Assembly: GCA_021769035.1 (NCBI GenBank)
Contig: JAETTP010000004.1
Span: 10-64,009, forward strand
Direction: 5' to 3'
Length of the DNA: 64,000 bases
Source of the DNA: Bacillota bacterium
GTDB lineage: Bacteria; Bacillota; Dehalobacteriia; UBA4068; UBA4997
Shown piece by piece: positions 8,586 through 57,939 of this stretch. The position numbers and the translations under genes are program-made. The notes under the pieces are model-generated. The model had not been told where the DNA came from and searched no databases. It saw only the letters and a program-made list of their open reading frames with translations. The first letter of the stretch is position 1. Each line of letters opens with the position of its first letter.

Positions 8586-8681
8586 CAGGCAAAGCTATTG
8601 ACAATCGAAATCCAAAAGTTTTGTTAAATACAAAGAGCCGACCCTCAAACCGAGTCAGCCCTCAGAAGTTTTTGCTATAAA

Positions 8682-8720
8682 AATAGCCGCTTCCATTGGC
8701 GCTGGGCGGCTATTTTTGTT
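8682..8720 (+). terminator. Rho-independent terminator (AATAGCCGC-loop-GCGGCTATT followed by TTTTGTTT)
   Basis: A 9-bp perfect stem and T-run downstream of the 8145..8585 gene. Confidence 0.5.
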
Positions 8721-8836
8721 TGCATTCAACTTTTTCCCCTTACAGCTTTTTATTGACATCTAGTCTTTTTTATGCCATAATTTTAGGTGATAAAATTACT
8801 GATTGTTCAATAAAAAATGCAAGGGGTTTTATTTTT

Positions 8837-40221: not shown

Positions 40222-40298
40222 GGTGGATATGGCGAAGCGGTTAACGCACCGGATTGTGGCTCCGGCACGCATGGGTTCGATCCCCATTATCCACCCCA
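40222..40298 (+). tRNA. tRNA-His (anticodon GTG)
   Basis: The extra 5-prime G(-1) pairs with C73. Anticodon stem CCGGA/TCCGG with loop TTGTGGC, and a GGTTCGATCC T-arm. Confidence 0.8.
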
Positions 40299-40301: not shown

Positions 40302-40366
40302 TGGGGCGTAGCCAAGCGGTAAGGCAACGGGTTTTGGCTCCGTCATGCGTAGGTTCGAATCCTGCC
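40302..40366 (+). tRNA. tRNA-Gln (anticodon TTG)
   Basis: 5-prime UGGGG acceptor typical of tRNA-Gln, anticodon loop TTTTGGC and T-arm GGTTCGAATCC. Lies 3 nt after tRNA-His. No CCA is encoded. Confidence 0.75.
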
Positions 40367-40368
40367 GC

Positions 40369-40397
40369 CCCAGCCAAAGGTCGGGCTAAATGCCCGA
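40369..40397 (+). terminator. Rho-independent terminator (GGTCGGGC-TAAAT-GCCCGACC followed by a T-run)
   Basis: A perfect 8-bp GC-rich stem followed by TATTTTT. Confidence 0.6.
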
Positions 40398-40449: not shown

Positions 40450-40532
40450 GCGGACGTGGCGGAATTGGCAGACGCACCAGACTTAGGATCTGGCGAGCAA
40501 TCGTGAGGGTTCAAGTCCCTCCGTCCGCACCA
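40450..40532 (+). tRNA. tRNA-Leu (anticodon TAG), class II with a long variable arm
   Basis: Acceptor GCGGACG/CGTCCGC, anticodon stem CCAGA/TCTGG with loop CTTAGGA, a long variable arm and a CCA end. Confidence 0.8.
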
Positions 40533-40619
40533 TTTTTTTCCTGACTTGCCGCAAAAAAAGCAAAAAAACTATTGCAAAAACGGCGGCAAAGTAGTATGAT
40601 AATAAGGTAAGCTTTTTAA

Positions 40620-40695
40620 GGGCCCATAGCTCAGCTGGGAGAGCGCTGCGTTCGCATCGCAGAGGCCGAGGGTTCAAATCCCTTTGGGTCCACCA
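40620..40695 (+). tRNA. tRNA-Ala (anticodon CGC)
   Basis: The G3:U70 identity pair (GGGCCCA/TGGGTCC), anticodon loop TTCGCAT and a CCA end. Confidence 0.8.
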
Positions 40696-40702
40696 CCAAC
40701 AA

Positions 40703-40737
40703 AGGATGACGCTTAATTAGTAGTCATCCTTTTTATT
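40703..40737 (+). terminator. Rho-independent terminator after the tRNA cluster (AGGATGAC-loop-GTCATCCT followed by TTTTT)
   Basis: An 8-bp perfect stem plus a T-run, placed at the GC to AT composition break. Confidence 0.55.
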
Positions 40738-40816
40738 ATAAAAACGTTTGTATTCTTTAATAATGTGCATACTCTAATATATATAACTATATAACAAAAT
40801 AAAAGGATGTGGCATT

Positions 40817-42031
40817 ATGCAAATTGAATCACTAAACATTAAAAATTATCGTGTTTTTCATAATGTATCCGTTGACAACCTGCCACAAATGGCAGTTTTT
40901 ATGGGACAGAATGGTGTTGGTAAAACAACTTTTTTTGATGTGTTTGGCTTTCTAAATGATTGTTTAAGCAGTAATGTCCGCTCAGCTTTAGCTAAACGTG
41001 GTGGTTATAACGAAGTAATATCTAGAGATCAAAACGAGGATATGCATTTTGAAATTAAATTTCGCCCATCACCTGACGAACCTATAATTACCTATGAACT
41101 TACAATCGGTTTAAATGAAGCTGCAGCACCAGTTGTAAAAAAAGAGGTAATGAGATTTCGCCGTGGACAGCATGGAGCACCTTGGAAAATCCTAGATTTT
41201 GCTTATGGCGAAGGCGTAGCGGCAGATGGCAGCTTGCAATCCTATGAAACCGTACAAATGGCAACTCGTAAACGTCAAAAAGTTGCCGCACCTGATATAT
41301 TAGCAATCAAGGGATTGGGACAATTTGAAGATTTTCCTGCGGTTGCTTCATTACGACGCTTAATTGAAGATTGGTATGTATCAGATTTTCATATTGAAGG
41401 AGCGCGTGAACGCCAACAAGCTGATTATAGCGAATCTCTTTCCAGAACAGGTGACAATTTATCACAAGTTGCAAAATATCTTTACGATAATCATCGTGAT
41501 AGATTTGACTCTATTTTGCAAGCAATGAGAGAACGTGTTCCCGGTGTAAATAACGTTGAGGCTAAACTTACAGAAGACGGCTATGTAATCTTACGTTTTC
41601 AAGATGGGCGTTTCAAAAATCCTTTTTCGTCTAAGTTTGTTTCAGACGGAACAATTAAAATGTTCACATATTTAATATTACTCAGAGACCCCAACCCACA
41701 TGCTTTACTTTGCGTTGAGGAGCCGGAAAATCAACTGTATCCAGAGTTATTGCCACAACTGGCCGAGGAATTTCGGCATTATACAGACGTTGGAGGTCAG
41801 GTTTTTATTTCAACTCACTCACCAGATTTTTTAAATGCTATTCGTTTAGAAGAATTATACTGCTTAGTCAAAATTAATGGTTACACTGATATTATTTGCG
41901 CCTCTAAACTACCGCTTATTGTTTCATTATACAAAGAAGGAGATTTGTTAGGTGAGTTGTGGCAACAAGGTATTCTTTTAACTGAAGCTACAAAGGAAGC
42001 GCACAATTTACAAAAGGAGTCCTCGCAATGA
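40817..42031 (+). CDS. ABC-type ATPase (AAA_21/RecF-SbcC-like), putative defense-system ATPase
   Basis: Walker A GQNGVGKTT, ABC-signature-like SDGTIKM, Walker B/D-loop LLCVEEPE and H-loop STHSP. AT-rich codon usage (roughly 35% GC). Confidence 0.8.
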   Translation: MQIESLNIKNYRVFHNVSVDNLPQMAVFMGQNGVGKTTFFDVFGFLNDCLSSNVRSALAKRGGYNEVISRDQNEDMHFEIKFRPSPDEPIITYELTIGLNEAAAPVVKKEVMRFRRGQHGAPWKILDFAYGEGVAADGSLQSYETVQMATRKRQKVAAPDILAIKGLGQFEDFPAVASLRRLIEDWYVSDFHIEGARERQQADYSESLSRTGDNLSQVAKYLYDNHRDRFDSILQAMRERVPGVNNVEAKLTEDGYVILRFQDGRFKNPFSSKFVSDGTIKMFTYLILLRDPNPHALLCVEEPENQLYPELLPQLAEEFRHYTDVGGQVFISTHSPDFLNAIRLEELYCLVKINGYTDIICASKLPLIVSLYKEGDLLGELWQQGILLTEATKEAHNLQKESSQ

Positions 42032-42579
42032 AACTCATATTTCTTTTAGAGGAGTTTTCAATGAAATATTTACTTGATGAGCTGTTGCCCAAAATACTTC
42101 CTGACGATGTGGAGTTTCAAACAATACCACACACAGGTAAAAGTGCACTAGAAAAATCTATACCACGTAAATTGCGTGCTTGGAATGAACCCAATGATAT
42201 TCGATTTGTAATTTTACACGATCAAGATAACAAAGATTGTCGACAATTAAAAAAGAAACTCTTAGAGCTTTGCAATGTAACAGACCGACCTGTCCTCGTT
42301 AGAATTATCTGCCAAGAATTAGAATCCTGGTACTTTGGTGATATGAATGCTGTTGCACAAGCCTATGATAAACCTAATTTACGAAACATATCTAAAAAGA
42401 AAAACTATCGAGTTCCTGACAATATTCAATCACCAAAGGCAGAGTTACTTAAACTAATACCCAATCATCAACAAATTAGCGGCGCAAAAAAAATTGCACC
42501 ACTAATGTCAATAGAGAACAATTCATCTGAAAGTTTTCAATATTTCATATCTGGTATTCATAAATTGATTGGCCGATAA
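42028..42579 (+). CDS. DUF4276-like small protein with a TOPRIM-like E...DxD signature (putative nuclease partner)
   Basis: Its ATG overlaps the ATPase stop codon (ATGA). It has an N-terminal acidic LLEEF and a VILHDQDNKD (DxD) motif about 60 residues later, with no other known domain. Same AT-rich composition as the ATPase gene. Confidence 0.6.
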   Translation: MKLIFLLEEFSMKYLLDELLPKILPDDVEFQTIPHTGKSALEKSIPRKLRAWNEPNDIRFVILHDQDNKDCRQLKKKLLELCNVTDRPVLVRIICQELESWYFGDMNAVAQAYDKPNLRNISKKKNYRVPDNIQSPKAELLKLIPNHQQISGAKKIAPLMSIENNSSESFQYFISGIHKLIGR

Positions 42580-42659
42580 TTGCAAAAACTGAAATAAATG
42601 CCAAAAAAACTTCCACGCTTAGATTATATTCGATCTGTTTATATTTCAACTCAGCCAAA

Positions 42660-42712
42660 AAGAAAAGCAAGGCGCATCCCCGTGCGGGAAACATCGCCCT
42701 GCTTTTCTTTTC
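42660..42712 (-). terminator. Bidirectional rho-independent terminator at the right edge of the AT-rich islet
   Basis: GCAGGGCG...CGCCTTGC hairpin with T-runs on both strands, downstream of the minus-strand gene 42752..43294. Confidence 0.45.
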
Positions 42713-42751
42713 TGCAAGAGTTTAGCCGTTAAGCATAATACACCATTTTAA

Positions 42752-43294
42752 CTACCAGGCCTGCATCATCTGCTCCAACACCTGCACCATTCTGTTAAAC
42801 AGCAGCGCGCTGGGGCTTTTCCTAAAGGTCTGGCTGGTTGGGTCAAACTCCTCAAAGGAAGCCTGATAACGCGCCCAATCCAAGATGTTGTTGGGGCCGG
42901 CCTGCAAAGCGTAGGCAACGCCCTGCGCCGGCGCTGAAATCTGCGCGCCGGTTTCAGCGTCCTCCAGCCGCGTCAGGCTCAGGCCGGAAACGCGGCTTTT
43001 GCCCTCTGCCGGAATAACGCCGTAGGCGCAAAGCTCCTCCACAAATTTGTAATATTCCTCCCGCGTCATATTCTGGGGATCGTACTTTTTAGCCAACTCC
43101 GCCGCCTGCTCCTTTGTCAGGCCGGGCTGGCTTTGTGCGGCCTGCAAACGGGCCGCAGACTGCTCCTTGGCCTCGGCCAACGCCGCCGCCAGCGCCTCCC
43201 GGTATTCAGCCTTGGCCACTCCGTATTGGCCCTTATAAGCGAACCAATCCGCTTTGAACACGCCGCTTGTTCCATCAACCAACAAACTAAACAC
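42752..43294 (-). CDS. Hypothetical protein
   Basis: 180 aa ORF with GC-rich coding bias and no recognisable motif. Confidence 0.45.
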   Translation of the reverse strand: MFSLLVDGTSGVFKADWFAYKGQYGVAKAEYREALAAALAEAKEQSAARLQAAQSQPGLTKEQAAELAKKYDPQNMTREEYYKFVEELCAYGVIPAEGKSRVSGLSLTRLEDAETGAQISAPAQGVAYALQAGPNNILDWARYQASFEEFDPTSQTFRKSPSALLFNRMVQVLEQMMQAW

Positions 43295-46047: not shown

Positions 46048-47274
46048 TTAATCATAGCGCAAAGCCTCAATCGGCTCCAGTTTGGCCGCCTGCCGGGCCG
46101 GATAAGTGCCGGAAAGCACGCCCACCAGCACGGAAACCGCCACCGCCGCCAAACTGGGCAAAATCGCGCCAATTAAATAATCAAACGAAACTTCCATAAC
46201 CAAAATCAGCAGGAAAAAGGCCCCAAAACCGACTATAACCCCAAGCCCGCCGCCGATTAAGCCGATGATAACCGCCTCCAGGGCAAACTGCCGCTGAATA
46301 TCCCGCCTGGTGGCCCCAAACGCCTTGCGGACGCCGATTTCCCTGGTGCGGGCCTGCACGCCGGCCAGCATTACGCTCATAATGCCCGCGCCGCCGATAA
46401 GCAGCACAATCACGGCCAAAAACACCTGCTGCACCGCGTCGCCGATAATAAAACCTTTTATCATTTCCGATGATTCCCCTAAGGAGATAATTGTCAGCCA
46501 CCAAACGGTTCTCCGCTCCCGGCCGGTTCGTTCCTTTAGCATATCCATCACCAGCGTTTGCGCTTCATCCATTTTATCTTTTCCATTAGCATATACATAA
46601 TATTTATCCTCATATATACCGGCATTATAAGGATCAAGCCTATCTCCAAGCATTTTTCTGGCGTTGGTGTAAGGAATATAAACCTCGCTATTCAGGGTTC
46701 GGGACTTTGGCACCTCGGCCAAAACCCCAACAACGGTGTAATTCTCGCCCCAAACTTTGATTTCCTTACCCAAAGCGTCGCCGCCCAGCAAATCGTTAGC
46801 AATGCTGTTGCCTATCACGCAAACTTTGCGTTCCCTATCTATATCCAAATCGGCAAAAAAACGCCCCTCCTGCAAATGCAGCACCGGCCGCATTTTAAGA
46901 TAGCTGTCGCCCACTCCATAAACCTGCGCTTCGTCAGCAGCCGCATCGCCATATCTCACGCCGCCCGGCAGGTCAAACTCAGAATACGGCGATATGGCGC
47001 TGATAACCTCTGGATTATCCGCCGCAACCTGCTCCATATCCTCCGGCGTAATCCTTACCGGATAATCCACGTCAGTGCTGACCCACATATCCAAAAGGCT
47101 GTCGGCATATTCCTCCTTTTCATTCTGAACGAACATCAAGGAAACATTGCAGCAGCTCAAAGCAAGGATAAAACCGGCAATGCCGATAAACATCCCCAAA
47201 ACAGCTTGCAGGCAACGCCACTTGTTGGCGGCCAAATTGCGCACCGCATTTTGCAGACTTTGTTTAATATCCAC
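46048..47274 (-). CDS. FtsX/MacB-type ABC transporter permease, paralog 1 of 7
   Basis: N-terminal TM helix, large extracytoplasmic MacB-like domain, three C-terminal TM helices and a GVRKAFGA motif. GTG start preceded by GGGAGG. Confidence 0.85.
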   Translation of the reverse strand: MDIKQSLQNAVRNLAANKWRCLQAVLGMFIGIAGFILALSCCNVSLMFVQNEKEEYADSLLDMWVSTDVDYPVRITPEDMEQVAADNPEVISAISPYSEFDLPGGVRYGDAAADEAQVYGVGDSYLKMRPVLHLQEGRFFADLDIDRERKVCVIGNSIANDLLGGDALGKEIKVWGENYTVVGVLAEVPKSRTLNSEVYIPYTNARKMLGDRLDPYNAGIYEDKYYVYANGKDKMDEAQTLVMDMLKERTGRERRTVWWLTIISLGESSEMIKGFIIGDAVQQVFLAVIVLLIGGAGIMSVMLAGVQARTREIGVRKAFGATRRDIQRQFALEAVIIGLIGGGLGVIVGFGAFFLLILVMEVSFDYLIGAILPSLAAVAVSVLVGVLSGTYPARQAAKLEPIEALRYD

Positions 47275-47298
47275 CTAAAAAACCTCCCTTAAACACAG

Positions 47299-48504
47299 TT
47301 AATCGTAACGCAAAGCGTCAATCGGCTCCAGCCGGGCCGCCCTGCCCGCCGGCAAAAAGCCGAAAATTATCCCCAGACCGACGGAAACGCTGAAAGAAAG
47401 CAACACGGAATCCCCGGCCAACGCAAACGGCAGCTTCATAAAATGACAGGCCAAAAAGCTGGCCGCCACCCCCAGGCCCACGCCAAACAAGCCGCCCGTG
47501 GCGCTGGTGCAGGCCGCCTCAATTATAAATTGCAGCCGAATATCCCGCCGCCTGGCCCCAAAGGATTTGCGCACGCCAATTTCCTTAGTGCGCTCCGATA
47601 CGGAAATGGACATAATATTCATAATCCCCACGCCGCCCACCAGCAGGGCAATGCCGGCAATCATTGAAAGCACGGAAAGCATACTTCCTTGCATAGCAAT
47701 CATCATTTCCATCCGTTCCTTTTGGCTGGTGATTTGAAAGTAATCGTCCTTTTCATAACATTCCAGCAGCAGTTCCTCAATCGCCGCCACCGCGGCCTCG
47801 GAACATTCTCTAGTGCGAGAATTTAAAGTGTAGCTGCTCACAAAAGGCGTTTCCCCCAGCTGCAAAACGTTGGTGTAAGGGATATAAACCACATCATCCA
47901 CGCCGCCGGCCGCGTTTTGCAAATCAATATCGGAAAGCTCGTCCTGCGGGCCCAGCACGCCCACCACGGTGTAATTCCGCCCGCGGATTTTAAGGCTGCT
48001 GCCCAAGGCCCGGCCGCCCATAATCACCCGGTTCACGTAATGCCCCACCACGCAAACCTGGGCCTGCCGCTCCACGTCCATATACTGCAAAAACCGCCCC
48101 TCCGTCAGGTCCAACAGCTGCGTTTGCAGATAAGCCTCGCTCACGCCATAAATCTTCGTCCCACTGTGGCGCTCGTTGCCGTATTTAACGCCGCCGCCCA
48201 GCCCCACGCTGGGGCTTAAATCGCAGAGCAAATCCGGCTTGCTGCTCACCAACTCATACATATCCTCCACACTAATTTGGCGGGTGGAATCCCGATTGTA
48301 CAGACTGACGCTGATCATATTGGCCCCCAGCTTATCGAAACGGGCCTCCACCTTGGCCACCGTGCCCCGGCCGATAGTCATAATCGCAATAACCGCCGCC
48401 ACGCCGATAATTATGCCCAGCATAGTCAGCAGAGAGCGCACCTTGCGCGCCAGCAGGCTTTTAATGGCCAGCTTAAAACCTTGGCTAATATTCATTTGGT
48501 GCAC
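47299..48504 (-). CDS. FtsX/MacB-type ABC transporter permease, paralog 2
   Basis: Same architecture as paralog 1. C-terminal ...AARLEPIDALRYD. Confidence 0.85.
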   Translation of the reverse strand: MHQMNISQGFKLAIKSLLARKVRSLLTMLGIIIGVAAVIAIMTIGRGTVAKVEARFDKLGANMISVSLYNRDSTRQISVEDMYELVSSKPDLLCDLSPSVGLGGGVKYGNERHSGTKIYGVSEAYLQTQLLDLTEGRFLQYMDVERQAQVCVVGHYVNRVIMGGRALGSSLKIRGRNYTVVGVLGPQDELSDIDLQNAAGGVDDVVYIPYTNVLQLGETPFVSSYTLNSRTRECSEAAVAAIEELLLECYEKDDYFQITSQKERMEMMIAMQGSMLSVLSMIAGIALLVGGVGIMNIMSISVSERTKEIGVRKSFGARRRDIRLQFIIEAACTSATGGLFGVGLGVAASFLACHFMKLPFALAGDSVLLSFSVSVGLGIIFGFLPAGRAARLEPIDALRYD

Positions 48505-48530
48505 CTCCTGACTTATTTAATTAATCGCTG

Positions 48531-49772
48531 TCAGCCCTCGCTGATAGCCGCCACCGGCTCCAGCTTGGCCGCCTTGCCTGCCGGATAAGTGCCGAATATC
48601 ATACCCACGCCAACCGAAATCAAAGCTGTTATAACCAAGGGTAAAAAAGGAACCCCAAGCACATCTAACGGCAAATGTAAAACATCACAAACAATGTAAA
48701 TAATTGGCACGGCTAAAAAAATACCAACCACACAGCCAAGCATACTAATACAAACACTTTCACACAAAAATTGCTTTTGTATATCCTTGTTTGTTGCGCC
48801 GAATGCCTTACGAATACCAATCTCCTTGGTGCGCTCCTCAACCAAAGCTATCATCATATTCATAATACCGTTGCCACCCACCAGCAATATCAAAAAGGCA
48901 AACAAGGCAAAAGGAGCAAACACCATTGACAAACCTTGGCTCATCTGTTTTCCCTGCCAATCTAACGATGTTATATTGGCCGCGTCGGTTTCATTCAGAC
49001 AACTGTCCAACATAGACCTGATTGCAGCATGGGCTTCAACCGTATTTTCTGCGCTTGTAACGCCAACAAAATATGAGCTGAAGTAAGACCCAATGCCGCT
49101 AAATGTTTCTGGACGAAAATCTGCTCCAGTTATTTTTAATGCACAAGTGGACGGAAGCAAAATTGTATCATTCCAATTTTCAGCGTCTAAATCAATTTCT
49201 GCCAACACACCAATAACAGAAAAATTAGTTCCGGCTATTTTTAGGCTTTGCCCTAAAGCATTACCACCCATAATTTTATTTGCAATATTACTGCCTATAA
49301 CACACACATTCTGCTCGCGTTCAATATCCATATTTTGTAAAAACCGGCCTTGTTTAACCTGCAAAACATGGATAATTTTATAAAAATCCTCATTAATCCC
49401 CTCAATATTTATATTGCTGTTATTATATAGCTTATTATCATACACAAAACCGTCAACATAATCAGATACATATATCATCGGGCTTACAGCGTAAATCAGA
49501 TCTGGATTTTCCTTAATCAAATTCTGCCAATCCTCGTCCGTTAGCGTATCACGTGAAAAGGTGTCCATTCTTTCAAAAACGCTCACCCATATCACACCCG
49601 AATTATAATTTGCAACCTGCATTTTAATTTGATTTAATAAGCCTTGGGCAACGCAAACCACAGTAAAAACAGATACTAAACCAATAACAAAAATTAATGT
49701 TGATTGCAGGGTTCGCATTTTGTTTTTTAATAAGCTTTGAAAAGATAAACGAAAAAGCTGCTTAATATCCAT
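48531..49772 (-). CDS. FtsX/MacB-type ABC transporter permease, paralog 3 (AT-rich body with a GC-rich 3-prime end)
   Basis: Same architecture. The body is roughly 40% GC, while the last 70 nt or so are identical to the 3-prime end of paralog 4. Confidence 0.85.
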   Translation of the reverse strand: MDIKQLFRLSFQSLLKNKMRTLQSTLIFVIGLVSVFTVVCVAQGLLNQIKMQVANYNSGVIWVSVFERMDTFSRDTLTDEDWQNLIKENPDLIYAVSPMIYVSDYVDGFVYDNKLYNNSNINIEGINEDFYKIIHVLQVKQGRFLQNMDIEREQNVCVIGSNIANKIMGGNALGQSLKIAGTNFSVIGVLAEIDLDAENWNDTILLPSTCALKITGADFRPETFSGIGSYFSSYFVGVTSAENTVEAHAAIRSMLDSCLNETDAANITSLDWQGKQMSQGLSMVFAPFALFAFLILLVGGNGIMNMMIALVEERTKEIGIRKAFGATNKDIQKQFLCESVCISMLGCVVGIFLAVPIIYIVCDVLHLPLDVLGVPFLPLVITALISVGVGMIFGTYPAGKAAKLEPVAAISEG

Positions 49773-49805
49773 AATTTCTATTCCTTTTTCCGATCTTAAT
49801 CGCTG

Positions 49806-51086
49806 TCAGCCCTCGCTGATAGCCGCCACCGGCTCCAGCTTGGCCGCCTTGCCTGCCGGATAAAGACCAAAAATTACGCCAACCAGCATTGCTGCAACCG
49901 CCGCCAGCAAAGCCGGCAACAGCAAAGACGGCAAATTCAACAAATCAGGGCTGAAAAGCAGCTGGCCGGCATAACCAATCGGCACGCTGCCCATAAAACG
50001 GCAAACCAGCCAACCGGCAGGCAGGCCCAACGCCACGCCCAGCAGCGCGCCCAGGCCGCTGGTGCAAACGGCCTCCAGCAAAAACTGCCGGCGGATTTCC
50101 CCAGCCGTGGCCCCAAAAGCCCGCCGGACGCCAATTTCCCGCTTGCGCTCCTGCACGGCGGCCAGCATCACGTTCATAATCCCAACGCCGCCCACCAGCA
50201 GCACAAACCCGGAAAGGCCAAGCAATTTGCCCACCAGACCAAAAACGCACTCCCGGTCATATTTTTGCGAGGTGCGATTGCTTAGGGAAAACAGCAGGGT
50301 GGTTTCCCCGTGCGGCCGGCCGCTGACCTCCGCCAGCAGCGCGCGCACTGTGTCGCGTCCATTGATGATGTTATCCGTGCTGTTCAGGTTCACGTAGTAA
50401 ATATCCAGATAAAATTCCTCGTTTTCCCGCAGCGGCACCAAAATTTCCCCGGTCAGCTGTTTGGCGCTGGTGTAAGGAATATAGGTGCGATAATTGCCCT
50501 CCTCCAAATCAGGCTTAATTTCGCCAAAAACACCGATTACCGTAAAATTCTGCCCGCAGATTTTCACCGTTTGGCCCAGGGCCTGCTCATAATCCTGACA
50601 GCCCAAAAGCTCCGCAGCCACCGCGCTGCCCACCACGCACACATTTTGGCGGCGGCTGACGTCCAGCGGCTGCAAAAAACGCCCCGCCGCCACCTGGCAG
50701 GCCGGCTTCATACTCAAAAACTGCTCGCTAACCCCTTGCACCGTGGCCTTTTCCAAGGTTTCCCCGTTATAGCGCAGGTTGGGCTCCTCCACAAAAACCA
50801 GGGGCGATACCGCCGTTATGTACTCGGAGCTTTCCACCAGCCCCTCCATATCCTCCACCGTCACCCGCGGCGATTTCTCTGCACTCACGTAAACGCCCAT
50901 ATACATCAGGCTGGGGCTGTAGGCGGAATAAAACTTGCCCACGCCTTGCAGCAAATTGCTGCCCATACATAAAATAACCACCGCAGCCGCCACGCCAATC
51001 ACCATTCCCAGCGTGGTTTGGGCAAAACGTAGCTTGTTGGCCCGCAAATTGCGCCAGGCCATCGACAAACCCTGCCGAACATCCAT
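49806..51086 (-). CDS. FtsX/MacB-type ABC transporter permease, paralog 4
   Basis: Start reassigned to the ATG at 51084-51086 (MDVRQG...), which has a GGAGGTG RBS and removes the overlap with paralog 5. Confidence 0.85.
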   Translation of the reverse strand: MDVRQGLSMAWRNLRANKLRFAQTTLGMVIGVAAAVVILCMGSNLLQGVGKFYSAYSPSLMYMGVYVSAEKSPRVTVEDMEGLVESSEYITAVSPLVFVEEPNLRYNGETLEKATVQGVSEQFLSMKPACQVAAGRFLQPLDVSRRQNVCVVGSAVAAELLGCQDYEQALGQTVKICGQNFTVIGVFGEIKPDLEEGNYRTYIPYTSAKQLTGEILVPLRENEEFYLDIYYVNLNSTDNIINGRDTVRALLAEVSGRPHGETTLLFSLSNRTSQKYDRECVFGLVGKLLGLSGFVLLVGGVGIMNVMLAAVQERKREIGVRRAFGATAGEIRRQFLLEAVCTSGLGALLGVALGLPAGWLVCRFMGSVPIGYAGQLLFSPDLLNLPSLLLPALLAAVAAMLVGVIFGLYPAGKAAKLEPVAAISEG

Positions 51087-51111
51087 AATTAACACCTCCA
51101 TAAATTTAAGC

Positions 51112-52383
51112 TCATAAACCCTCGTTGATAGCAACCACCGGCTCTATTTTGGCCGCCTGCCGGGCCGGATAGGTGCCGAATATCATACCCACGCCAACCG
51201 AAACGGCCAGGGCCAGCAGAATCGGCCAGGCACTCAAGGCAATATCCAAGTATGCCGTAGGATAAGTTACGCCCGTAGCGTCAAAACTTATACTATCAAA
51301 AAGCACCGGAACAGCAAAGCTGGCCACCTCGCCCAGAACAACGCCAACCACACCGCCAAGCAAGCTTGTAATTATCGCCTCTAACATAAACTGGCGCTGA
51401 ATATCCTTATTAGTAGCGCCAAATGCCTTGCGAATCCCAATCTCTTTGGTGCGCTCCCGTACACTGGCCAGCATTACGTTCATAATGCCCACGCCGCCAA
51501 CCAGCAAAACACCACTAGCCCCCAACATCAGGTTAAAACCCAAGGAATAAGTGCCGCCTTTACCGGCCTCATAAAAAAACAATTCGCTGGCGCAGGTTAA
51601 AAACCACTTATCAATATTAGCCTCCTCACCCACTATCGCCGACACCTCCTGCTCTACGGCCCTGCGGGCGTTGCCGATATTATCCACGCCGTTGGCAAAA
51701 AGCACAAAACGGTTTGAATAGTAATCGCCTAGATAACCCTTTCCTATCCTCTCACCGGTTATTTTAAGGGCGTTGGTATAAGGCAGATATATATGCTCTT
51801 CATTATTTGAGCGTCCTGATTTTTCCATTATGCCAACCACTGTACAATTTACACCCCAAATTTTCAGCGTTTTGCCCAAAGCGTCGCCGCCCATAAGCTC
51901 ATTGGCAATATCGCTGCTCACCACGCAAACGTTTTGTTCCCGGCGGCAATCCATATACTGGATAAAACGCCCCTCGGCCAGTTTTTCATTAGGCGTAGCG
52001 TTTAGATAATTTTCATTTACGCCAACAAAGATAGCCTCGTCAAAACATTTATCGCCATACCAGATATTGCCACCCAAAGTATGGTCATATACAAAAGGCG
52101 AAACCGCCACAATGGTCTCCGGATATTTGGCGGCAATTTCGTCCATATCCTCAATGGTTATCGGCCTGTTAAGCTCCAGTCTGGTAGCAATATACATATG
52201 CATAACGCTGAAACTTTCCGGGTTCCAAATCTCTTCCATCAGATTGAGTAATACTTGACAGATATTGCCGGTTGCCACAATCGCCGCCACGCCAATCATC
52301 ATTGCCAGCGTAGTCTGGGCAAAGCGCATTTTGTTGACGCACAAATTCCTGATTGCTGCAAAAAAGCTTTGTTTAATATCCAC
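51112..52383 (-). CDS. FtsX/MacB-type ABC transporter permease, paralog 5
   Basis: Same architecture. GTG start with an AAGGAGGG RBS. Confidence 0.85.
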   Translation of the reverse strand: MDIKQSFFAAIRNLCVNKMRFAQTTLAMMIGVAAIVATGNICQVLLNLMEEIWNPESFSVMHMYIATRLELNRPITIEDMDEIAAKYPETIVAVSPFVYDHTLGGNIWYGDKCFDEAIFVGVNENYLNATPNEKLAEGRFIQYMDCRREQNVCVVSSDIANELMGGDALGKTLKIWGVNCTVVGIMEKSGRSNNEEHIYLPYTNALKITGERIGKGYLGDYYSNRFVLFANGVDNIGNARRAVEQEVSAIVGEEANIDKWFLTCASELFFYEAGKGGTYSLGFNLMLGASGVLLVGGVGIMNVMLASVRERTKEIGIRKAFGATNKDIQRQFMLEAIITSLLGGVVGVVLGEVASFAVPVLFDSISFDATGVTYPTAYLDIALSAWPILLALAVSVGVGMIFGTYPARQAAKIEPVVAINEGL

Positions 52384-52418
52384 AAAACACCCTCCTTATT
52401 AACTTCTCTTAATCGCTA

Positions 52419-53648
52419 TCAGCTTTCGTTGATAGCCGCCACCGGCTCCAGCTTGGCCGCCTGCTGAGCCGGATAGGTGCCAAAGATTACGCCAACCGAC
52501 ACCGAAAGCCCCAAAGCCAGCAAAATCGGCCAGGCTGTTATGTGAATATCTAACTCAGACACAGGAAAACCAAAAACACTAAAGTCAAGCAGCCAAGGCG
52601 CGGCAAAGCTTAACATCACACCAAAAACCAGGCCTAAAAAACCGCCAAACAGGCTGGTTATCAAGGCCTCCAGCCTAAATTGCCAGTGGATATTTTTATT
52701 TGTCGCGCCAAAGGCCTTGCGTATGCCAATTTCTTTGGTGCGCACCTCCACGCTGGCTATCATCACATTCATAACGCCCACGCCGCCCAGCAGCAGCACA
52801 AGCAAAGCCAGCAGAAAATACTTGTAAACCTGACTGACGGCATAACCAATGACATCTTCCTTAACAAATTGATAACTTAAAAACGTCATAGACCAATTAT
52901 CCTTACCCAGCAGTTTATCTATCTCCTCCTGGATCAAATTACGCACGTTACCGATATTTTCCATACCGTTAGCCTTAACCTCAAAACGGTCAGCATAATA
53001 TTTATTTTCCTGATAACCGGTGCGAATAACATCGCCAACCATTTTGCGCGCGCAGGTATACGGCAGAAATATCAGCCCCGCTGTGTTATCGTCATCAACC
53101 CCCACCACCGTAAAATTATATCCGTCAATATTCAGGGTTTTACCCAAGGCATCGCCGCCCAGCAGTTTATCGGCAATGTCCGTGCCAACCACGCACACGT
53201 TTTGCTCCCGCCGGCAATCCATATACTGAATAAAACGGCCCTCCTTGAGCTTTACGCAGTGCATATCAGCATACTGTTCATTTACGCCAAAGTAATTGCC
53301 TTTTTTGTAAATTTTATCACCGTATCGCACATTACAATAGATTGAATCAGCAACAATATACGGTGAAACTCCTAAAATAATATCGGGGTTAGCTTCGGCA
53401 ATTTTTTCCAAATCCTCAATAGTCGCCCGTTTGTTTGAATCAACCCGGCTGCTGATATATATATTGTTATTGCTCATAATGTCCGGCGTCCAGGAAGTTT
53501 CCACCTGCTGAATCAACACCTGACAAGTATTGCCAAGAACGATAAACGCCGCCACGGCCACAATCAGAGCAAACATAGCCTGTATTGAGCGCCGCTTGTT
53601 GGCATACAAATTGCGCGCCGCATTCAAAAAACTCTGTTTTATATCCAC
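52419..53648 (-). CDS. FtsX/MacB-type ABC transporter permease, paralog 6
   Basis: Same architecture. Its 3-prime end and downstream intergenic region are identical to those of paralog 7. Confidence 0.85.
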   Translation of the reverse strand: MDIKQSFLNAARNLYANKRRSIQAMFALIVAVAAFIVLGNTCQVLIQQVETSWTPDIMSNNNIYISSRVDSNKRATIEDLEKIAEANPDIILGVSPYIVADSIYCNVRYGDKIYKKGNYFGVNEQYADMHCVKLKEGRFIQYMDCRREQNVCVVGTDIADKLLGGDALGKTLNIDGYNFTVVGVDDDNTAGLIFLPYTCARKMVGDVIRTGYQENKYYADRFEVKANGMENIGNVRNLIQEEIDKLLGKDNWSMTFLSYQFVKEDVIGYAVSQVYKYFLLALLVLLLGGVGVMNVMIASVEVRTKEIGIRKAFGATNKNIHWQFRLEALITSLFGGFLGLVFGVMLSFAAPWLLDFSVFGFPVSELDIHITAWPILLALGLSVSVGVIFGTYPAQQAAKLEPVAAINES

Positions 53649-53685
53649 AAAAAACGCCCTCCTTATTAACTTCTCTTAATCGCTA

Positions 53686-54912
53686 TCAGCTTTCGTTGAT
53701 AGCCGCCACCGGCTCCAGCTTGGCCGCCTGTTTGGCGGGATAAGTGCCGGAAAGCAGGCCGACCAGTATCGTAATCGCAAAGGCAGCCAACATCGGCCAA
53801 ACAGTACCTGTTATATAAGTTAAAGGCGAATGGCTTGTAAGAAAAATCCCAAGAATTATGCCAAAGCCAACTGCCACCCCCAGCAGGCCGCCAATCAAAC
53901 CGGTAATCACCGCCTCCAGCATAAACTGACGCTTAATATCATTGGCAGTGGCTCCAAAGGCTTTCCGAATGCCAATTTCCTTAGTGCGGGCCTGCACACT
54001 GGCCAGCATAACGTTCATAATGCCCACGCCGCCCACCAACAGCGCCACCACAGAAAACAGCAGGTACGTACACATAGTTTGATAAACATCTATTTTGGAC
54101 ATTTCCTCAAAATAGCGGTAAGAGGCTGAAATATAATACCAATCCCGGTTGATCTGCCCCAAACGCTCCGCCAGCATATCCGTCGCGGCCAACCGAGCGT
54201 TGGCGATATTTTCAACGCCATTAGCTTTAATATAATAGCTATCTACGTAAAATTCACCCTGCAAATCGTACCTTGGCGTGGTAACCTCACCCTGCACGCG
54301 CTTCATAATCGTATACGGCAGCATAATGCAGCGATTGTAATCCGCAGCGCCCATATCCAACACGCCAATCACCTTGTAATCCGCCCCCCAAAGGCGCAGC
54401 GTTTGGCCTAAAATTTCATTGTTATTATTATAATTTAACGCATAGCCAACCACGCACACCCTTTGCTCCCGGTCAATCTCCATAGGTTTAAAAAAACGTC
54501 CCGCAGCCAGCCGCAAACTGCTCATCGTGCCCAGATAATTTTCATCAACCCCAAAAACGTTGTACTCCGCAGCTTCTCCCGCGGCCCCTTTAAGGGACAC
54601 CGGCAGGCCGGAATTAATATGCGGGCTCACCGCCTTAATAAACTCCGGGTTATCCGCAGCCAGTTGGCGCATATCCTCAATGCCTACCCTTTTGGTGTTA
54701 TTTATATTTGTCATCACCATAAAGTGCATAGTGTCCGGGCTGTTATATTGCTTATAGACGAACTCCACCACGTCAAAGGTTGCCGGTATAATATTCAGCA
54801 TTACAATAACGCTTGCCGTCCCCATAACAATCCCCAACACCGCCTGCAAACAACGCCACTTGTTGGCAAATAAATTGCGCATAGCCGTCCTAAACGTCTG
54901 CTTAATATCCAC
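53686..54912 (-). CDS. FtsX/MacB-type ABC transporter permease, paralog 7
   Basis: Same architecture. GTG start, 32 nt downstream of the ATPase gene. Confidence 0.85.
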   Translation of the reverse strand: MDIKQTFRTAMRNLFANKWRCLQAVLGIVMGTASVIVMLNIIPATFDVVEFVYKQYNSPDTMHFMVMTNINNTKRVGIEDMRQLAADNPEFIKAVSPHINSGLPVSLKGAAGEAAEYNVFGVDENYLGTMSSLRLAAGRFFKPMEIDREQRVCVVGYALNYNNNNEILGQTLRLWGADYKVIGVLDMGAADYNRCIMLPYTIMKRVQGEVTTPRYDLQGEFYVDSYYIKANGVENIANARLAATDMLAERLGQINRDWYYISASYRYFEEMSKIDVYQTMCTYLLFSVVALLVGGVGIMNVMLASVQARTKEIGIRKAFGATANDIKRQFMLEAVITGLIGGLLGVAVGFGIILGIFLTSHSPLTYITGTVWPMLAAFAITILVGLLSGTYPAKQAAKLEPVAAINES

Positions 54913-54944
54913 AAACGATCACCAGCCCTTTCCCCAAACCGCGC

Positions 54945-55679
54945 TCAGCCCTCCGCCGCCACCACGGCCTCCGCGCCGTCGGCCGGCCCGTCGTAGACGA
55001 TTTTACCGTCCTCCAGCCGCACAATCCGCTGCGCCTGCCGGGCAATGGCATTGTCGTGCGTAATCAGCACCACGGTGCGCCCCTCAGCGTTCAGCTGCTG
55101 CAAATAGCCCAGCACCTCCCGGCCAGTTTGGCTGTCCAGCGCGCCGGTGGGCTCGTCCGCCAAAATCACCGCCGGCTCCCCGGCCAAAGCCCTGGCAATC
55201 GCCACCCGCTGCTGCTGGCCGCCGGAAAGCTGATTGGGCACGTTGGCCGCCTTGTCCGCCAACCCCACCTTTTCCAGAAGCTGCAAGGAGCGCTTGTGCC
55301 GCTCCCCAGCCGGCATACCGGCGTATAACATCGCCAACTCCACATTCTCGCAAAGGTTCAGCTTGGGTATCAGGTTATACTGCTGGAAAATGAAGCCCAG
55401 CGTTTTGTTGCGCAACTTAGCCTTAGCGTTATCGTCCATTGCCAAAACGTCCTCACCGGCCAGATGATAGCTGCCGGAGGTGGGCACGTCCAGGCAGCCG
55501 ATTATGTTCATGCAAGTGGATTTGCCGCTGCCGCTGGCCCCCACAATCGCCACAAACTCCCCCCGGCAGATTTCCAGCGTCACCCCGTCCAGGGCGTGCA
55601 CCGCAGTTTCCCCCGTTTGGTAAATCTTAAAAACCTCCTGCAATTTAATCAACGCTTCGCCATTTTTTACTTCACTCAT
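54945..55679 (-). CDS. ABC transporter ATP-binding protein (MacB/LolD-type nucleotide-binding domain)
   Basis: Walker [10 protein letters not shown], signature [15 protein letters not shown] and Walker [12 protein letters not shown]. Confidence 0.9.
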
Positions 55680-55702
55680 TTTAAAAGCCTCCTTTTGTAT
55701 TA

Positions 55703-57214
55703 TCAGCTGCCGCTCCCATTGGGCACGGCAATCTTTTCGCCCTCCCGAACGCCGGAGATGACCTCCACATAGTAATCGTCGTTCAGGCCCAGCTCCAGCT
55801 GCCGCCAGCAGTAGCCGGGCAAATCGCTGGCCTCGCCATTGCTGCCCTCGACCAGCAACATATTTCCCCGGCTGATTGCATTCATCGGCACCAGCAGCAC
55901 GTCCTCCGCCTGCTGCAAAACCACCTCGGCATTAATATTCATACCCGGCAGCAACGCGCCAAACTCATCTAAAGTTACGGTAATCGGGTAAGTGGTTACG
56001 CCGTTGCTGCTGCTGCCCTTAATGCTGATTTTGCTGACGCGGCCGGTAAACTCCTGGCCGTCCAGCGCGTCCGCCACCACCTGCACCGGCTGGCCCACCT
56101 GCATCAGGCCAATGTCCAGCTCGTCAACATTCATCACAAACTCCAATTTACTCATATCGTAAATAACCGCCATTTCACTGGCATTGTTGTTGCTGTCTAT
56201 GGTGTCGCCCTGGTTGAACTTTTTTTCAATCACGGTGCCGGCAATCGGCGATTTAATGCTGTAATCCTCCAGCGCCGCCCGGGCGTTTTCCAGCTCCAGC
56301 CGGGCCCGTTGCAGCTCGTTTTCCACGCTTTCATCACTCAGCCGCACCAACGCCTGCCCGGCCCGCACATTGTCGCCCTCGGCCACCAAAATTTCCGCCA
56401 CGTCGCCGCTGCTTTTGGCCAAAACCTGTTCGCTGTAGGCATATTCCAGCAGGCCGCTGCGCACGCCGGCAAAGCCGCCGGCCTCCGCCTGTGCCCAATC
56501 GCCCTCCTGCAAGCCGCCGGGATTGCTCAGGCTAATCGTCACCTTATGGGTAAGCGCGCCGGCGCTCACCTGCTCCACCGGGGAAACCTCCAGGATTTGC
56601 CCCTCAAGGCGCTCGCCCGTTTTTTCCACAATCACCGCCGCCGTCTGGCCGGCTTGCAGCTGCTGGGCCTCCTCCGTTTTGAAAGGGGCCTCCAGCAGCA
56701 TTTTTTCCCTATCACGCAGGTAAACAAGCTGTGTGCCAACGCTCACATTGTCGCCAACCGCGCAGTGGATTTTCACCACCTGCCCGTCCGCCGGGGCCGT
56801 CACGTTCAGCTTGGCCGCGTCCGCCTGGGCCTCCGCCAAATTCAGCTGGGCCAATGTGTAGTTATTTTGGGCCCAGCCCGCATCAATCTGATAGAGCAGC
56901 TGGCCGGCCTCAATCACATCGCCCTCGCTGAAAGGGGCGCTTAAAACATCCCCCGTCACCAGGGCTTTCACGGTGTAGGAATTCACCGGCTGCACCGTGC
57001 CCACCCCCTCCAGGGTGGAGATAATGCTGCCCCGCTCCACCAGCTGATAGCGATAGGCCGGGGCCTCTCCCTGCTGCTCCGCCTGGCTTTGGCTGAAAAA
57101 CCACCAGCCGCCGGCTGCGGCCGCCGCCAGCAGCAGAATTAGCAGCCAAAGCCAGACTTTGCTGCCAGTTTTTGTGCCCACTGATCCCCGATCAGCGCTT
57201 TTGCCTGTAAACAT
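55703..57214 (-). CDS. HlyD/MacA-type periplasmic adaptor (membrane fusion protein)
   Basis: N-terminal TM anchor, coiled-coil, and lipoyl/barrel-like segments typical of membrane fusion proteins. Confidence 0.85.
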   Translation of the reverse strand: MFTGKSADRGSVGTKTGSKVWLWLLILLLAAAAAGGWWFFSQSQAEQQGEAPAYRYQLVERGSIISTLEGVGTVQPVNSYTVKALVTGDVLSAPFSEGDVIEAGQLLYQIDAGWAQNNYTLAQLNLAEAQADAAKLNVTAPADGQVVKIHCAVGDNVSVGTQLVYLRDREKMLLEAPFKTEEAQQLQAGQTAAVIVEKTGERLEGQILEVSPVEQVSAGALTHKVTISLSNPGGLQEGDWAQAEAGGFAGVRSGLLEYAYSEQVLAKSSGDVAEILVAEGDNVRAGQALVRLSDESVENELQRARLELENARAALEDYSIKSPIAGTVIEKKFNQGDTIDSNNNASEMAVIYDMSKLEFVMNVDELDIGLMQVGQPVQVVADALDGQEFTGRVSKISIKGSSSNGVTTYPITVTLDEFGALLPGMNINAEVVLQQAEDVLLVPMNAISRGNMLLVEGSNGEASDLPGYCWRQLELGLNDDYYVEVISGVREGEKIAVPNGSGS

Positions 57215-57231
57215 TTGTTTACACCTCCACT

Positions 57232-57939
57232 TTAATCAGATCCCCGCTCCTCCTGCTTGGCCTCTTTGCGCAGATTTTCCGGTTTTTCCGTGTTCTCCAA
57301 CAACTCGTCAATAGCCTGAAAATACATATGATCCAAGGTTGAGCTAAAATAAAGCAACGGTAAAAAAATACTCAATAAAACAAAAAACATTACAGTGTCC
57401 AAAATAAAGCTTTCAAATAGCAGAACCGCACCGATAAACAGCAAAAAACGCCCTTTGTTCAGATAGATAATCCCGCCAAGCGCCACCGCTATTATCAAAA
57501 TAGCCAGCAAAACTAAGTGGGTCGACATCTCATAATAACCATCCAGCAGGTGTTCGTTCAGGTTTTTTAACACATTGAGGTTAAAAAAGCCGGCGATAAG
57601 TATAGCCAGAACCGTAAGGCTCAAACCACGAGAAAGCCAGCGGGTTTCCCTAATCTCCCGGATTTTTTCAATCAGCTGCATTGTTTTCAGCAGCTGCGCG
57701 TCCGCCTCCCGTTTATATTCCTCCTCCGCAAAGCGGTCCCCAGCCATCAGCTCATTAACGCTGACGCCCAGCACCTCCGCCAGGCTGGGGATAATCGCCA
57801 GCTCCGGCATATAATTGCCGTTTTCCCAACGGGAAACCGTTTTGTTGGTAACGCCCAGCATCTCCCCCAGCTGGGCCTGCGTCCAGCCCTTTTGCTTGCG
57901 CAACTCCGCCACAAATTTACCAATCTTAACCTGATCCAT
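57232..57939 (-). CDS. Membrane-anchored XRE-family HTH regulator (BcrR-like architecture)
   Basis: N-terminal HTH_3 (KGWTQAQLGEMLGVTNKTVSRWENG) followed by three or four predicted TM helices. It is the first gene of the transporter operon. Confidence 0.8.
   Translation of the reverse strand: MDQVKIGKFVAELRKQKGWTQAQLGEMLGVTNKTVSRWENGNYMPELAIIPSLAEVLGVSVNELMAGDRFAEEEYKREADAQLLKTMQLIEKIREIRETRWLSRGLSLTVLAILIAGFFNLNVLKNLNEHLLDGYYEMSTHLVLLAILIIAVALGGIIYLNKGRFLLFIGAVLLFESFILDTVMFFVLLSIFLPLLYFSSTLDHMYFQAIDELLENTEKPENLRKEAKQEERGSD

Follow-up and report, generated by a model that had tools for sequence, protein, structure and literature searches.

Results

The locus consists of an AT-rich cassette of two genes at positions 40707–42656 of the window, by which we mean the whole 64,000-nucleotide stretch of Bacillota DNA that was analysed. 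The cassette is 1,950 bp long and has a GC content of 0.357, compared to 0.508 and 0.509 in the 5-kb flanks and 0.549 in the window outside insert and flanks; no 1,950-nt stretch of the window is lower in GC. GC3 is 0.25 in both cassette genes, against 0.58–0.72 in neighbour genes. An abrupt fall in GC had been part of the original prediction, and both the fall and its limits are borne out, but the flank value then given, roughly 60%, is too high, the local flank being about 50%. Judged from its sequence, the cassette has very probably been acquired horizontally.

Both ORFs lie on the + strand. The first (40817–42031) codes for an ABC ATPase of 404 aa, and the second (42028–42579) for a 183-aa partner, a DUF4276 protein and predicted nuclease of Toprim fold. 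They overlap by 4 nt as ATGA at 42028–42031, confirming that the islet holds two translationally coupled genes. Directly upstream, also on the + strand, are the four tRNA genes described originally: tRNA-His (40223–40298), tRNA-Gln (40302–40376), tRNA-Leu (40450–40532) and tRNA-Ala(CGC) (40620–40695). The last, identified by ARAGORN and Rfam, is of host type and forms the left boundary of the insertion. It is followed on the + strand by a terminator-like hairpin (40701–40732, inverted repeat I24), AAAGGATGAC-12 nt-GTCATCCTTT and then a T run; in sister cassettes, too, a hairpin of their own follows the tRNA at the equivalent position. A consensus promoter scan upstream of the ATPase gene found none, including the candidate TTTAAT ... 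TATATA (40756–40785, + strand). Alignment with sister cassettes suggests that this candidate is a possible, weak promoter, since the same positions are homologous to TTGAAT-17-TATAAT in L107 and to TTGAAT-17-TATGAT in L125 and L130. The cassette ends with an AT-rich 3′ untranslated tail (42580–42656, + strand), and the right junction lies at 42656|42657. The next hairpin (42658–42711, inverted repeat I2, with 17-nt arms that are 94% complementary) is a bidirectional terminator of the host, here called terminator 2. It lies outside the cassette and is found in the empty sites described below (43/45 aligned with L099).

Neighbours of the cassette are pth, mfd and the genes for a PrsA-like rotamase, a two-component system and an AraC regulator, as well as those for a FIST protein together with a methyl-accepting chemotaxis protein (MCP). 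Pfam-annotated genes on either side are regulators, tRNAs and transport genes, while the gene p180 and a 118-aa ORF belong to no family. No further defence genes were found near the cassette, so that guilt by association is missing for the window copy. The site is a housekeeping region, as pth, mfd and the two-component system illustrate, and the defence-island location proposed earlier is rejected.

Related metagenome contigs with about 92% nucleotide identity carry the order tRNA-Ala, terminator, terminator, next gene, and lack the gene pair. Such empty sites were found in L017 and in L099–L104. In the junction alignment, positions 1–75 of the reverse-complemented L099 correspond to window 40636–40706 and positions 110–248 to window 42657–42800, the cassette standing in place of 34 bp that make up the first terminator hairpin of the relatives. 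The left limit may lie anywhere from nt 17 of the tRNA (40636) to 40706, because tRNA-Ala is identical in relatives: from nt 17 onward in the cassette-free L099 and L102, and over the entire gene in L017. The existence of pair-free relatives at this level of identity implies that the cassette is a recent insertion with replacement of 34 bp. Absence of the pair from the same locus in these close relatives, together with its foreign composition, agrees with the mobile character that had been supposed. In same-species contigs from eight metagenome runs, the cassette is 100% identical over the covered stretches (2.4–2.9 kb).

Several other readings of the insertion were tried and set aside. A 9-bp repeat, ACCAACAAA (40695–40703 and 43278–43286), was rejected as a target-site duplication because L099–L104 put the right junction at 42656|42657 and not near 43280. 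The similarity between the ends, ACGCTTA(A/GA)TTA (40710–40721 and 42618–42630), is unsupported by sister cassettes and was treated as chance, and the ending TCAGCC common to the window and L113 cassettes, at 6 nt only, was not relied on. A single 2.6-kb insertion that includes the GC-rich gene p180, as a comparison with L017 might suggest, was rejected since contigs with p180 homologues show two separate events.

The motifs predicted for the ATPase were all read directly, namely Walker A (GQNGVGKT, residues 30–37), a motif that is only signature-like (VSDG, 275), Walker B (LLCVEE, 297–302) and the H-loop (TH, 333–334). Its Pfam families are AAA_21 and AAA_15. Compared to the PADLOC models, the protein matches the HEC-01 ATPase profile PDLC04144 with an E-value of 2.6e-163, residues 1–387 aligning to profile positions 1–389 of 395, and a second HEC-01 ATPase model, PDLC04182, with 3e-127. 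Other models matched far more weakly (AriA, 1.4e-24; GajA, about 1e-15), and mad3 was likewise far below HEC-01. In fold comparison, the predicted structure, a model of moderate confidence (pLDDT 71.9), resembles an SMC/Rad50/OLD-type ABC head, and defence ATPases rank shortly after. With phmmer, the only PDB matches of the ATPase were marginal, N-terminal ones to GajA.

The partner belongs to DUF4276 (PF14103, E 3.2e-15, 57.3 bits, cutoff 30.2), and Pfam gave no other family; the membership put forward originally is thus upheld. This family comprises 1,361 clusters at 50% identity. Among PADLOC models, matches were limited to HEC-01 (PDLC04143, E 8.6e-61; PDLC04202, E 4.1e-46) and, weakly, mad4. 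The partner had been described as a protein with no known catalytic domain, a statement now out of date, as DUF4276 has already been placed in the Toprim superfamily (PMC12065111). The predicted fold is indeed an OLD-type Toprim fold: a three-layer alpha/beta arrangement with strand order b2-b1-b3-b4, a Glu after b1 and a DxD motif after b3. A sequence-profile search against PDB sequences gave no match, and the Toprim likeness came from fold comparison only. The N-terminal glutamate and the DQD motif of the original prediction are present as E8, after strand 1, and D65-Q-D67, at the end of strand 3, and are joined by E97 and E99 after strand 4. Across 58 homologues of 33–59% identity, no substitution occurs at E8, D65 or E99, while conservation of D67 and E97 is at least 90%. 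These five residues are candidate metal ligands. In the surveyed literature, we found no DUF4276 protein with demonstrated nuclease activity or biochemical characterisation.

On these profile matches, the pair reads as a clear example of HEC-01, a catalogued but mechanistically unstudied PADLOC candidate anti-phage system, and not as a new kind of system; the earlier suggestion of a candidate defence module is in keeping with this match. HEC-01 (Hma-embedded candidate 01; PADLOC-DB v2) was discovered embedded inside Hma systems and is defined as an ABC ATPase plus a TOPRIM protein whose metal site is OLD-like (Payne et al., bioRxiv 10.1101/2024.01.29.577857). The window pair agrees with it in having the gene of an ABC ATPase next to that of a small TOPRIM (DUF4276) protein in the same orientation, each product matching the models over its full length, but stands alone beside a tRNA cluster in a housekeeping region instead of being embedded in Hma. 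Tests of defence by the family are split, one negative and one positive: Payne et al. saw no protection from BASEL and classic coliphages with their representative (bioRxiv 10.1101/2024.01.29.577857), while a single sentence, without mechanism, reports that one stand-alone HEC-01 protected from one or more of the phages T4, T5 and T7 (PMC12881386).

The original description of the pair as OLD/PARIS-like holds for its split OLD-like architecture. However, each OLD-family protein (class 1, P2 Old and T. scotoductus; class 2, B. pseudomallei; Gabija GajA) carries both domains on one polypeptide, and the cassette instead encodes them in two ORFs, each with a start codon. In addition, the partner has no Toprim-Old match in Pfam, and the cassette lacks the GajB-type helicase of Gabija. 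PARIS (AriA/AriB) likewise pairs an ABC ATPase gene with a Toprim gene on mobile DNA, but AriB belongs to DUF4435 and has about 300 aa, and the 183-aa DUF4276 partner matches no AriB model; the ATPase matches AriA about 140 orders of magnitude less strongly than it matches HEC-01. The pair is therefore neither PARIS nor a true OLD but of HEC-01 type, distantly related to Mad3/Mad4 of the MADS system of Pseudomonas aeruginosa. Those two proteins form a homologous pair of an AAA_21-type ATPase and a DUF4276 protein, both required for MADS defence, but the relationship is distant (NCBIfam MAD3, 129.4 bits with a cutoff of 420; MAD4, 16.9 with a cutoff of 160). None of the remaining six mad genes, Mad6–8 included, was found among the annotated neighbours in the window.

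The two genes stay together elsewhere. Of the 73 metagenome loci that extend far enough, 70 have the partner directly downstream of the ATPase, at ATPase identities as low as 52%, and the same arrangement is seen on the Synechocystis plasmid pSYSM. In IMG/VR, only three viral contigs were convincing, at about 50% identity, and a downstream DUF4276 partner was detected in one of them (L116); INPHARED gave seven weak matches. The HEC-01 family is rarely phage-borne, and the distribution of the pair is patchy and strain-specific.

Neither an integrase nor a tRNA 3′ repeat was found inside the window islet, as reported originally, and no tRNA-Ala fragment that would indicate an att duplication was found at the right end of the insert. 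Such repeats do occur in sister cassettes: whole or partial copies of tRNA-Ala(CGC) flank the pair in L107–109, L113–115 and L125–130, and a 2,088-bp unit recurs in two unrelated contexts with 99.9% identity. Both observations point to site-specific integration at tRNA-Ala(CGC) by a recombinase acting in trans. Among 80 JGI metagenome loci, tRNA-Ala copies were seen at one only, L130, which is a member of the close clade, and more distant HEC-01 pairs (52–77% ATPase identity) showed no tRNA-Ala association. Since this association is confined to the close clade, it is a feature of that clade and not of the HEC-01 family.

Discussion

We propose, with a probability of about 0.65, that the cassette is an acquired HEC-01 pair acting as a split OLD-like nuclease, in which the ATPase senses phage and licenses cutting by the Toprim protein. 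The SMC/Rad50-class ABC ATPase and the translationally coupled, stand-alone Toprim nuclease would form a complex, with the ATPase as its sensor or regulator. Upon phage infection, the ATPase would license the Toprim domain for metal-dependent cleavage of nucleic acid. Of the possible substrates, DNA, the target of OLD and Gabija, is more probable than tRNA, the target of PARIS. The outcome would be phage DNA loss or abortive infection, and the window copy would in this way act in defence. The context of the pair in other loci, both mobile and defensive, speaks for this reading: it adjoins large serine recombinases, IS elements, RepA_N/ParB genes with TIR proteins, and Abi_alpha, and its neighbours on pSYSM are toxin–antitoxin and HNH genes and a phosphorothioation-associated methyltransferase. 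So does a finding in MADS, where the methylase gene mad5 is deletable only together with mad2 or mad3, which implies that this ATPase module contributes to self-DNA toxicity. In essence, the original interpretation is supported.

In a PARIS-like variant of the mechanism, an oligomer of the ATPase would sequester the Toprim protein until a phage anti-restriction protein binds and frees the nuclease, whose cleavage of host tRNA would lead to abortive infection. We consider this unlikely.

Less likely still, the pair could be an orphan effector module that works only within a larger methylation-based system of the Hma or MADS type and is inactive, or has another role, when alone. Such dependence would fit the original discovery of HEC-01 within Hma, the negative result with one stand-alone representative and the place of Mad3 and Mad4 as accessory parts of the eight-gene MADS. 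The methyltransferase next to the pSYSM pair would fit as well. Yet most loci examined have no adjoining methyltransferase or helicase, a stand-alone HEC-01 has been reported as protective (PMC12881386), and in the window neither ORF is disrupted and no motif is missing, in a cassette that is fully conserved across the eight runs.

The pair might also serve no defence at all. Its frequent position at the edge of serine-recombinase elements and beside plasmid replication and partition genes, and the Pfam name of AAA_21, which refers to a toxin–antitoxin toxin, could indicate that it stabilises mobile elements or acts as their addiction module, or that it is a DNA-repair accessory of RecF/OLD type that happens to be mobile. 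We regard this as very improbable: the patchy, strain-specific distribution, the foreign composition and the presence of Abi_alpha and TIR proteins among the neighbours elsewhere argue against it, and all relatives with genetic data (MADS, PARIS, OLD and Gabija) are anti-phage systems.

Tentatively, the clade to which the window copy belongs could be a minimal mobile defence unit of about 2.1 kb that lacks a recombinase and combines the two genes with a 3′ segment of tRNA-Ala(CGC), a hairpin and a promoter. Acting in trans, a recombinase would place such units at a TGGGAG core within the D-arm of tRNA-Ala(CGC), so that cassettes and tRNA fragments build up into arrays, and the window copy would have lost its right att copy and 34 bp of host DNA and now be fixed. 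If so, the att sites of the responsible recombinase would contain CTGGGAGAGCG, and circles of L125/L126-type units would show the junction ...CATCTCGCTTGGGAGAGCGTACGG.... Cis-mobilisable elements (CIMEs), which are flanked by att sites and lack their own recombinase, are known from Streptococcus tRNA and other integration sites. The sister cassettes resemble them in being about 2.1 kb long, free of recombinase genes, bounded by tRNA-derived direct repeats and in tandem with other pieces at a tRNA. They differ in that their mobilisation is putative, and the window copy has the left tRNA only, with no right-hand repeat. To find a defence cassette close to a tRNA is ordinary, and the mobility point is new only in detail; nevertheless, the tRNA-Ala-bounded 2.09-kb unit of the sister loci gives a hint of how defence cassettes of very small size spread when they carry no recombinase.

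HEC-01 is reported to be among the more abundant uncharacterised candidate types and ranks, for example, in the top 12 most abundant in cold-seep genomes (PMC12881386). The window copy, from a mouse-gut Clostridia lineage, has exact insertion junctions with matching empty sites and intact motifs. It could therefore serve as a defined test article for the phage protection and the cleavage target of a stand-alone split-OLD pair.

An AT-rich cassette of two overlapping genes

Genes for tRNA-His (40223-40298), tRNA-Gln (40302-40376), tRNA-Leu (40450-40532) and tRNA-Ala(CGC) (40620-40695), all on the + strand, are followed by an ORF encoding a 404-aa ATPase (40817..42031) and, 3' of it, an ORF encoding a 183-aa partner (42028..42579). 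The ATPase stop and partner start overlap as ATGA. GC content is 0.31-0.43 across about 40600-42700, and the insert delimited below (40707-42656, GC 0.357) is the lowest-GC 1,950-nt stretch of the window, compared with 0.508 and 0.509 in the 5-kb flanks and 0.549 in the remaining window. Third-codon-position GC is 0.25 in both cassette genes and 0.58-0.72 in neighbouring genes. The ORFs, tRNAs and GC drop of the original prediction were thus all found, although the flanking GC of roughly 60% that it gave is too high for the immediate flanks.

The cassette encodes an HEC-01 ATPase and a predicted Toprim partner

Pfam places the 404-aa protein in AAA_21 (9.8e-28) and AAA_15 (5.5e-21) and the 183-aa protein in DUF4276 (PF14103, 3.2e-15, exceeding the gathering score), in agreement with the families expected earlier. 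In PADLOC-DB, both proteins gave full-length matches to a single candidate defence system, HEC-01 (PDLC04144, 2.6e-163; PDLC04143, 8.6e-61); matches to AriA (1.4e-24), GajA (about 1e-15) and mad3/mad4 were far weaker. Both proteins also resemble MAD3 and MAD4 of the MADS system, but below the NCBIfam cutoffs (129 bits against 420 for MAD3; 17 against 160 for MAD4). The A/B labels of the two PADLOC models are reversed relative to other HEC-01 models, 'HEC-01B' PDLC04144 being a 395-position ATPase profile and 'HEC-01A' PDLC04143 a 190-position DUF4276 profile, which could confuse automated calls.

A structure model of the partner, built from an alignment of 61 homologues, is confident (pLDDT 93.2, pTM 0.87). 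Its order is b1(2-7)-a1-b2(29-34)-a2-b3(58-65)-a3-b4(89-94), and the C-terminal part beyond is helical. Acidic residues lie right after b1 (E8), at the end of b3 (D65-Q-D67) and after b4 (E97/E99). In a deeper alignment of 58 proteins (33-59% identity to the query), E8, D65 and E99 never vary, and conservation is at least 90% for D67 and E97. The predicted structure is a Toprim fold of OLD type, as the suggestion of a TOPRIM-like partner had anticipated, with E8 and D65-Q-D67 at the canonical glutamate and DxD positions. The acidic pair after b4 may form a second metal site. Sequence-only searches of the partner against the PDB gave no match.

The exact 183-aa protein recurs on contigs of several metagenome runs, all representing the window context at 100% nucleotide identity. 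Beyond these, the nearest homologues share 84% (ATPase) and 74% (partner) identity, and typical values are about 80% and about 68%. The ATPase is thus consistently more conserved than the nuclease partner, the opposite of what might be expected if it were a fast-evolving phage sensor.

Empty sites define the junctions of a recent insertion

Using the downstream FIST protein as query and scanning one genome per species, we found one syntenic relative, MAG JAAWKH010000006 (L017), with protein identities of 93% (FIST), 92% (histidine kinase), 97% (XRE) and 80% (AraC). Its locus keeps the His-Gln-Leu-Ala tRNA cluster, but neither cassette gene is there. Also missing is p180, a 180-aa ORF (42752-43294, - strand, GC 0.587) between the cassette and the FIST gene; this absence constitutes a separate event. 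Contigs carrying p180 homologues at 90% (L099-L101) or 75% identity (L102 and L104) are likewise without the pair; they show tRNA-Ala, terminator 1, terminator 2, p180 and then, where the contig extends so far, FIST. The original prediction had asked whether relatives carry the pair at this locus; these do not.

Pairwise alignment placed L099 1-75 on window 40636-40706 and L099 110-248 on window 42657-42800, the common right flank being about 92% identical. From these junctions, an insert of 1,950 bp (40707-42656) stands in place of 34 bp holding the first terminator hairpin. The cassette is therefore a recent insertion with defined junctions. We detected no target-site duplication, no recombinase and, in accordance with the earlier reading, no tRNA fragment at the right end of the insert. 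Insertion by illegitimate recombination is possible; the sister cassettes described below point to another route.

Six Logan contigs with the cassette (L002, L004-L008) and five without it (L099-L102, L104), eleven in all and from ten different sequencing runs, begin at exactly the same base, the TGGGAG of the tRNA-Ala D-arm (window 40636). The probable cause is a branch of the assembly graph where tRNAs have sequence in common. The position is also that of the recombination core to which the sister cassettes point.

Sister cassettes are bounded by tRNA-Ala(CGC) sequences

In L107-L109, whose ATPase is 84% identical to that of the window, a complete tRNA-Ala(CGC) ends 146 nt 5' of the ATG, and a tRNA-Ala 3' fragment (about nt 23 to the CCA end), with a strong terminator behind it, starts 124 nt past the stop. 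In L125, L127-L129 and L130, the pair is flanked on each side by complete tRNA-Ala(CGC) genes, and 5' and internal fragments are present as well. In L126, a fragment of nt 17-76 directly adjoins the left end of the cassette; L113-L115 have a fragment of this kind on the right.

L125 (1266-3353) and L126 (5804-7891) are 99.9% identical across 2,088 nt, with unrelated flanks. This unit, which holds tRNA-Ala(CGC) nt 17-76, a hairpin, a promoter, the ATPase gene and the DUF4276 gene, starts at tRNA nt 17 and has TGGGAG at both bounds; the preceding base is C at the left in L125 and T elsewhere. A 55-nt piece follows the unit in L126 and precedes the tRNA in L125. Together, the copies and units suggest repeated site-specific integration and accretion at the D-arm of the tRNA gene. 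Since the units encode no recombinase, any such enzyme would act in trans. Within the clade defined by at least 79% ATPase identity, roughly half the independent contexts showed the tRNA-Ala association, which was not found for pairs more distant than this clade.

Part of the tRNA-to-ATG leader can be aligned between the window and L107. Good promoters (TTGAAT-17-TATAAT or TTGAAT-17-TATGAT) occur in the leaders of L107, L125 and L130; the window homologue, TTTAAT...TATATA (40756-40785), is weaker and was not reported by a consensus promoter scan of the window. In the simplest reading, the window copy reached tRNA-Ala by the same route as its sisters and later lost the right-hand repeat and 34 bp of host DNA.

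The family occupies mobile contexts elsewhere

Among close relatives (66-74% partner identity), the pair adjoins large serine recombinases (L009-L016, L113-L115), lies between IS elements (L125, L127-L129), stands beside RepA_N and ParB genes with TIR-domain proteins (L126), directly follows an Abi_alpha gene on its 3' side (L120-L124) or is alone amid housekeeping genes (L110-L112). In L009, L013 and L015 its GC (about 0.40) is below that of both flanks (0.45-0.59). More divergent copies of the pair, about 50% identical, are carried by plasmids of cyanobacteria, Bacteroidota and Deinococcota. On plasmid pSYSM of Synechocystis sp. PCC 6803, a tractable model cyanobacterium for testing the family, SGL_RS00110 and SGL_RS00115 (L097; NC_005229.1 25994-27735; ATPase 52.6% identical) are flanked by a cysteine desulfurase gene and a gene annotated as a DNA phosphorothioation-associated methyltransferase, with toxin-antitoxin (RelE/HigA), HEPN/MNT-type and HNH genes in the surroundings. 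The pair is rare on phage records. A DUF4276 gene lies 3' of the ATPase in 70 of 80 JGI metagenome loci, and 7 of the other 10 end 300 nt or less from the ATPase gene; clustering at 50% identity divides the partner family into 1,361 clusters (E up to 1e-3). These contexts support a mobile defence role of the family.

The window neighbourhood is not a defence island

Around the insert lie genes for peptidyl-tRNA hydrolase, Mfd, a PrsA-type rotamase, a response regulator and histidine kinase, an XRE regulator with a DUF6442 protein, an AraC regulator, the tRNA cluster, p180, the FIST protein, an MCP (methyl-accepting chemotaxis protein) and a run of MacB-type permeases. The immediate neighbours, tested against PADLOC models, gave no match except generic HTH. 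The proposed defence-island setting is thus not borne out. No Pfam or PADLOC family matched p180. Its homologues fall into just four protein clusters among 5.8 billion (99, 90, 75 and 53% identity), and none of 80 related genome loci contains it; it is an orphan gene restricted to its lineage.

The MacB array (46048-57939, - strand) is an unusually long tandem of seven consecutive MacB_PCD+FtsX paralogues (401-442 aa each), then a single ABC_tran ATPase, an HlyD-family membrane-fusion protein and an HTH_3 regulator. A GC dip to 0.397 over 49001-50000 falls mostly inside the paralogue at 48531-49772. A second AT-rich islet (7227-8695; GC about 0.39-0.40 over 7001-9000) holds divergent genes for a 101-aa XRE-type HTH protein (7698-8003, - strand) and a 146-aa protein matching no Pfam or PADLOC family (8145-8585, + strand), and may be another small acquired module. 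At the window start, in an AT-rich stretch (GC 0.40 over 1-1000), a Phage_integrase-domain ORF (61-579, + strand, E 2.8e-9) adjoins tRNA-Val(CAC) (717-793, - strand). It covers profile positions 28-168 only and may be truncated or extend past the window start; the region 61-793 probably marks the border of an integrated element.

A candidate anti-phage system

HEC-01 was defined by Payne et al. as an ABC ATPase plus TOPRIM protein embedded in Hma systems, with an OLD-like metal site noted in the predicted structure; their representative failed to protect E. coli against the BASEL and classic phages (bioRxiv 10.1101/2024.01.29.577857). A cold-seep study reported one HEC-01 that gave E. coli B protection against one or more of T4, T5 and T7 (PMC12881386). 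DUF4276 was placed in the Toprim superfamily, with conserved Glu and DxD, in the Menshen paper (PMC12065111), and the PARIS paper counted MADS3-4 among ABC-ATPase-plus-TOPRIM systems (PMC11464382). In MADS, loss of mad3 or mad4 lowers defence, and the methylase gene mad5 can be deleted only jointly with mad2 or mad3 (bioRxiv 10.1101/2023.03.30.534895), which suggests that toxicity against unmethylated self DNA stems in part from the ATPase module.

Family identity, fold, catalytic-type residues, pairing and recent horizontal acquisition are secure. Family relationships and contexts elsewhere make the pair a candidate anti-phage system, experimental support for HEC-01 being thin and mixed. An orphan effector needing a partner system, as the embedding in Hma systems might allow, is less likely, as is a non-defence role. 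Most likely, the pair would act as an OLD-like, ATP-regulated, metal-dependent nuclease on DNA. This model is favoured because the Toprim domain resembles OLD more than AriB of PARIS, and because MADS genetics link the homologous ATPase Mad3 to methylation-sensitive toxicity. PARIS-like tRNA cleavage is its main rival.

The antiphage reading of the original prediction is therefore supported by the HEC-01 assignment, the Toprim partner and the acquired state, and corrected in naming, setting and novelty. The papers cited here had already described the family, assigned its fold and proposed its defence role, though they do not give the biochemical mechanism. The cassette is a well-delimited member of HEC-01, a family already catalogued as candidate defence; the part that goes beyond the catalogue is solely the tRNA-Ala-bounded unit, without a recombinase of its own, at the sister loci.
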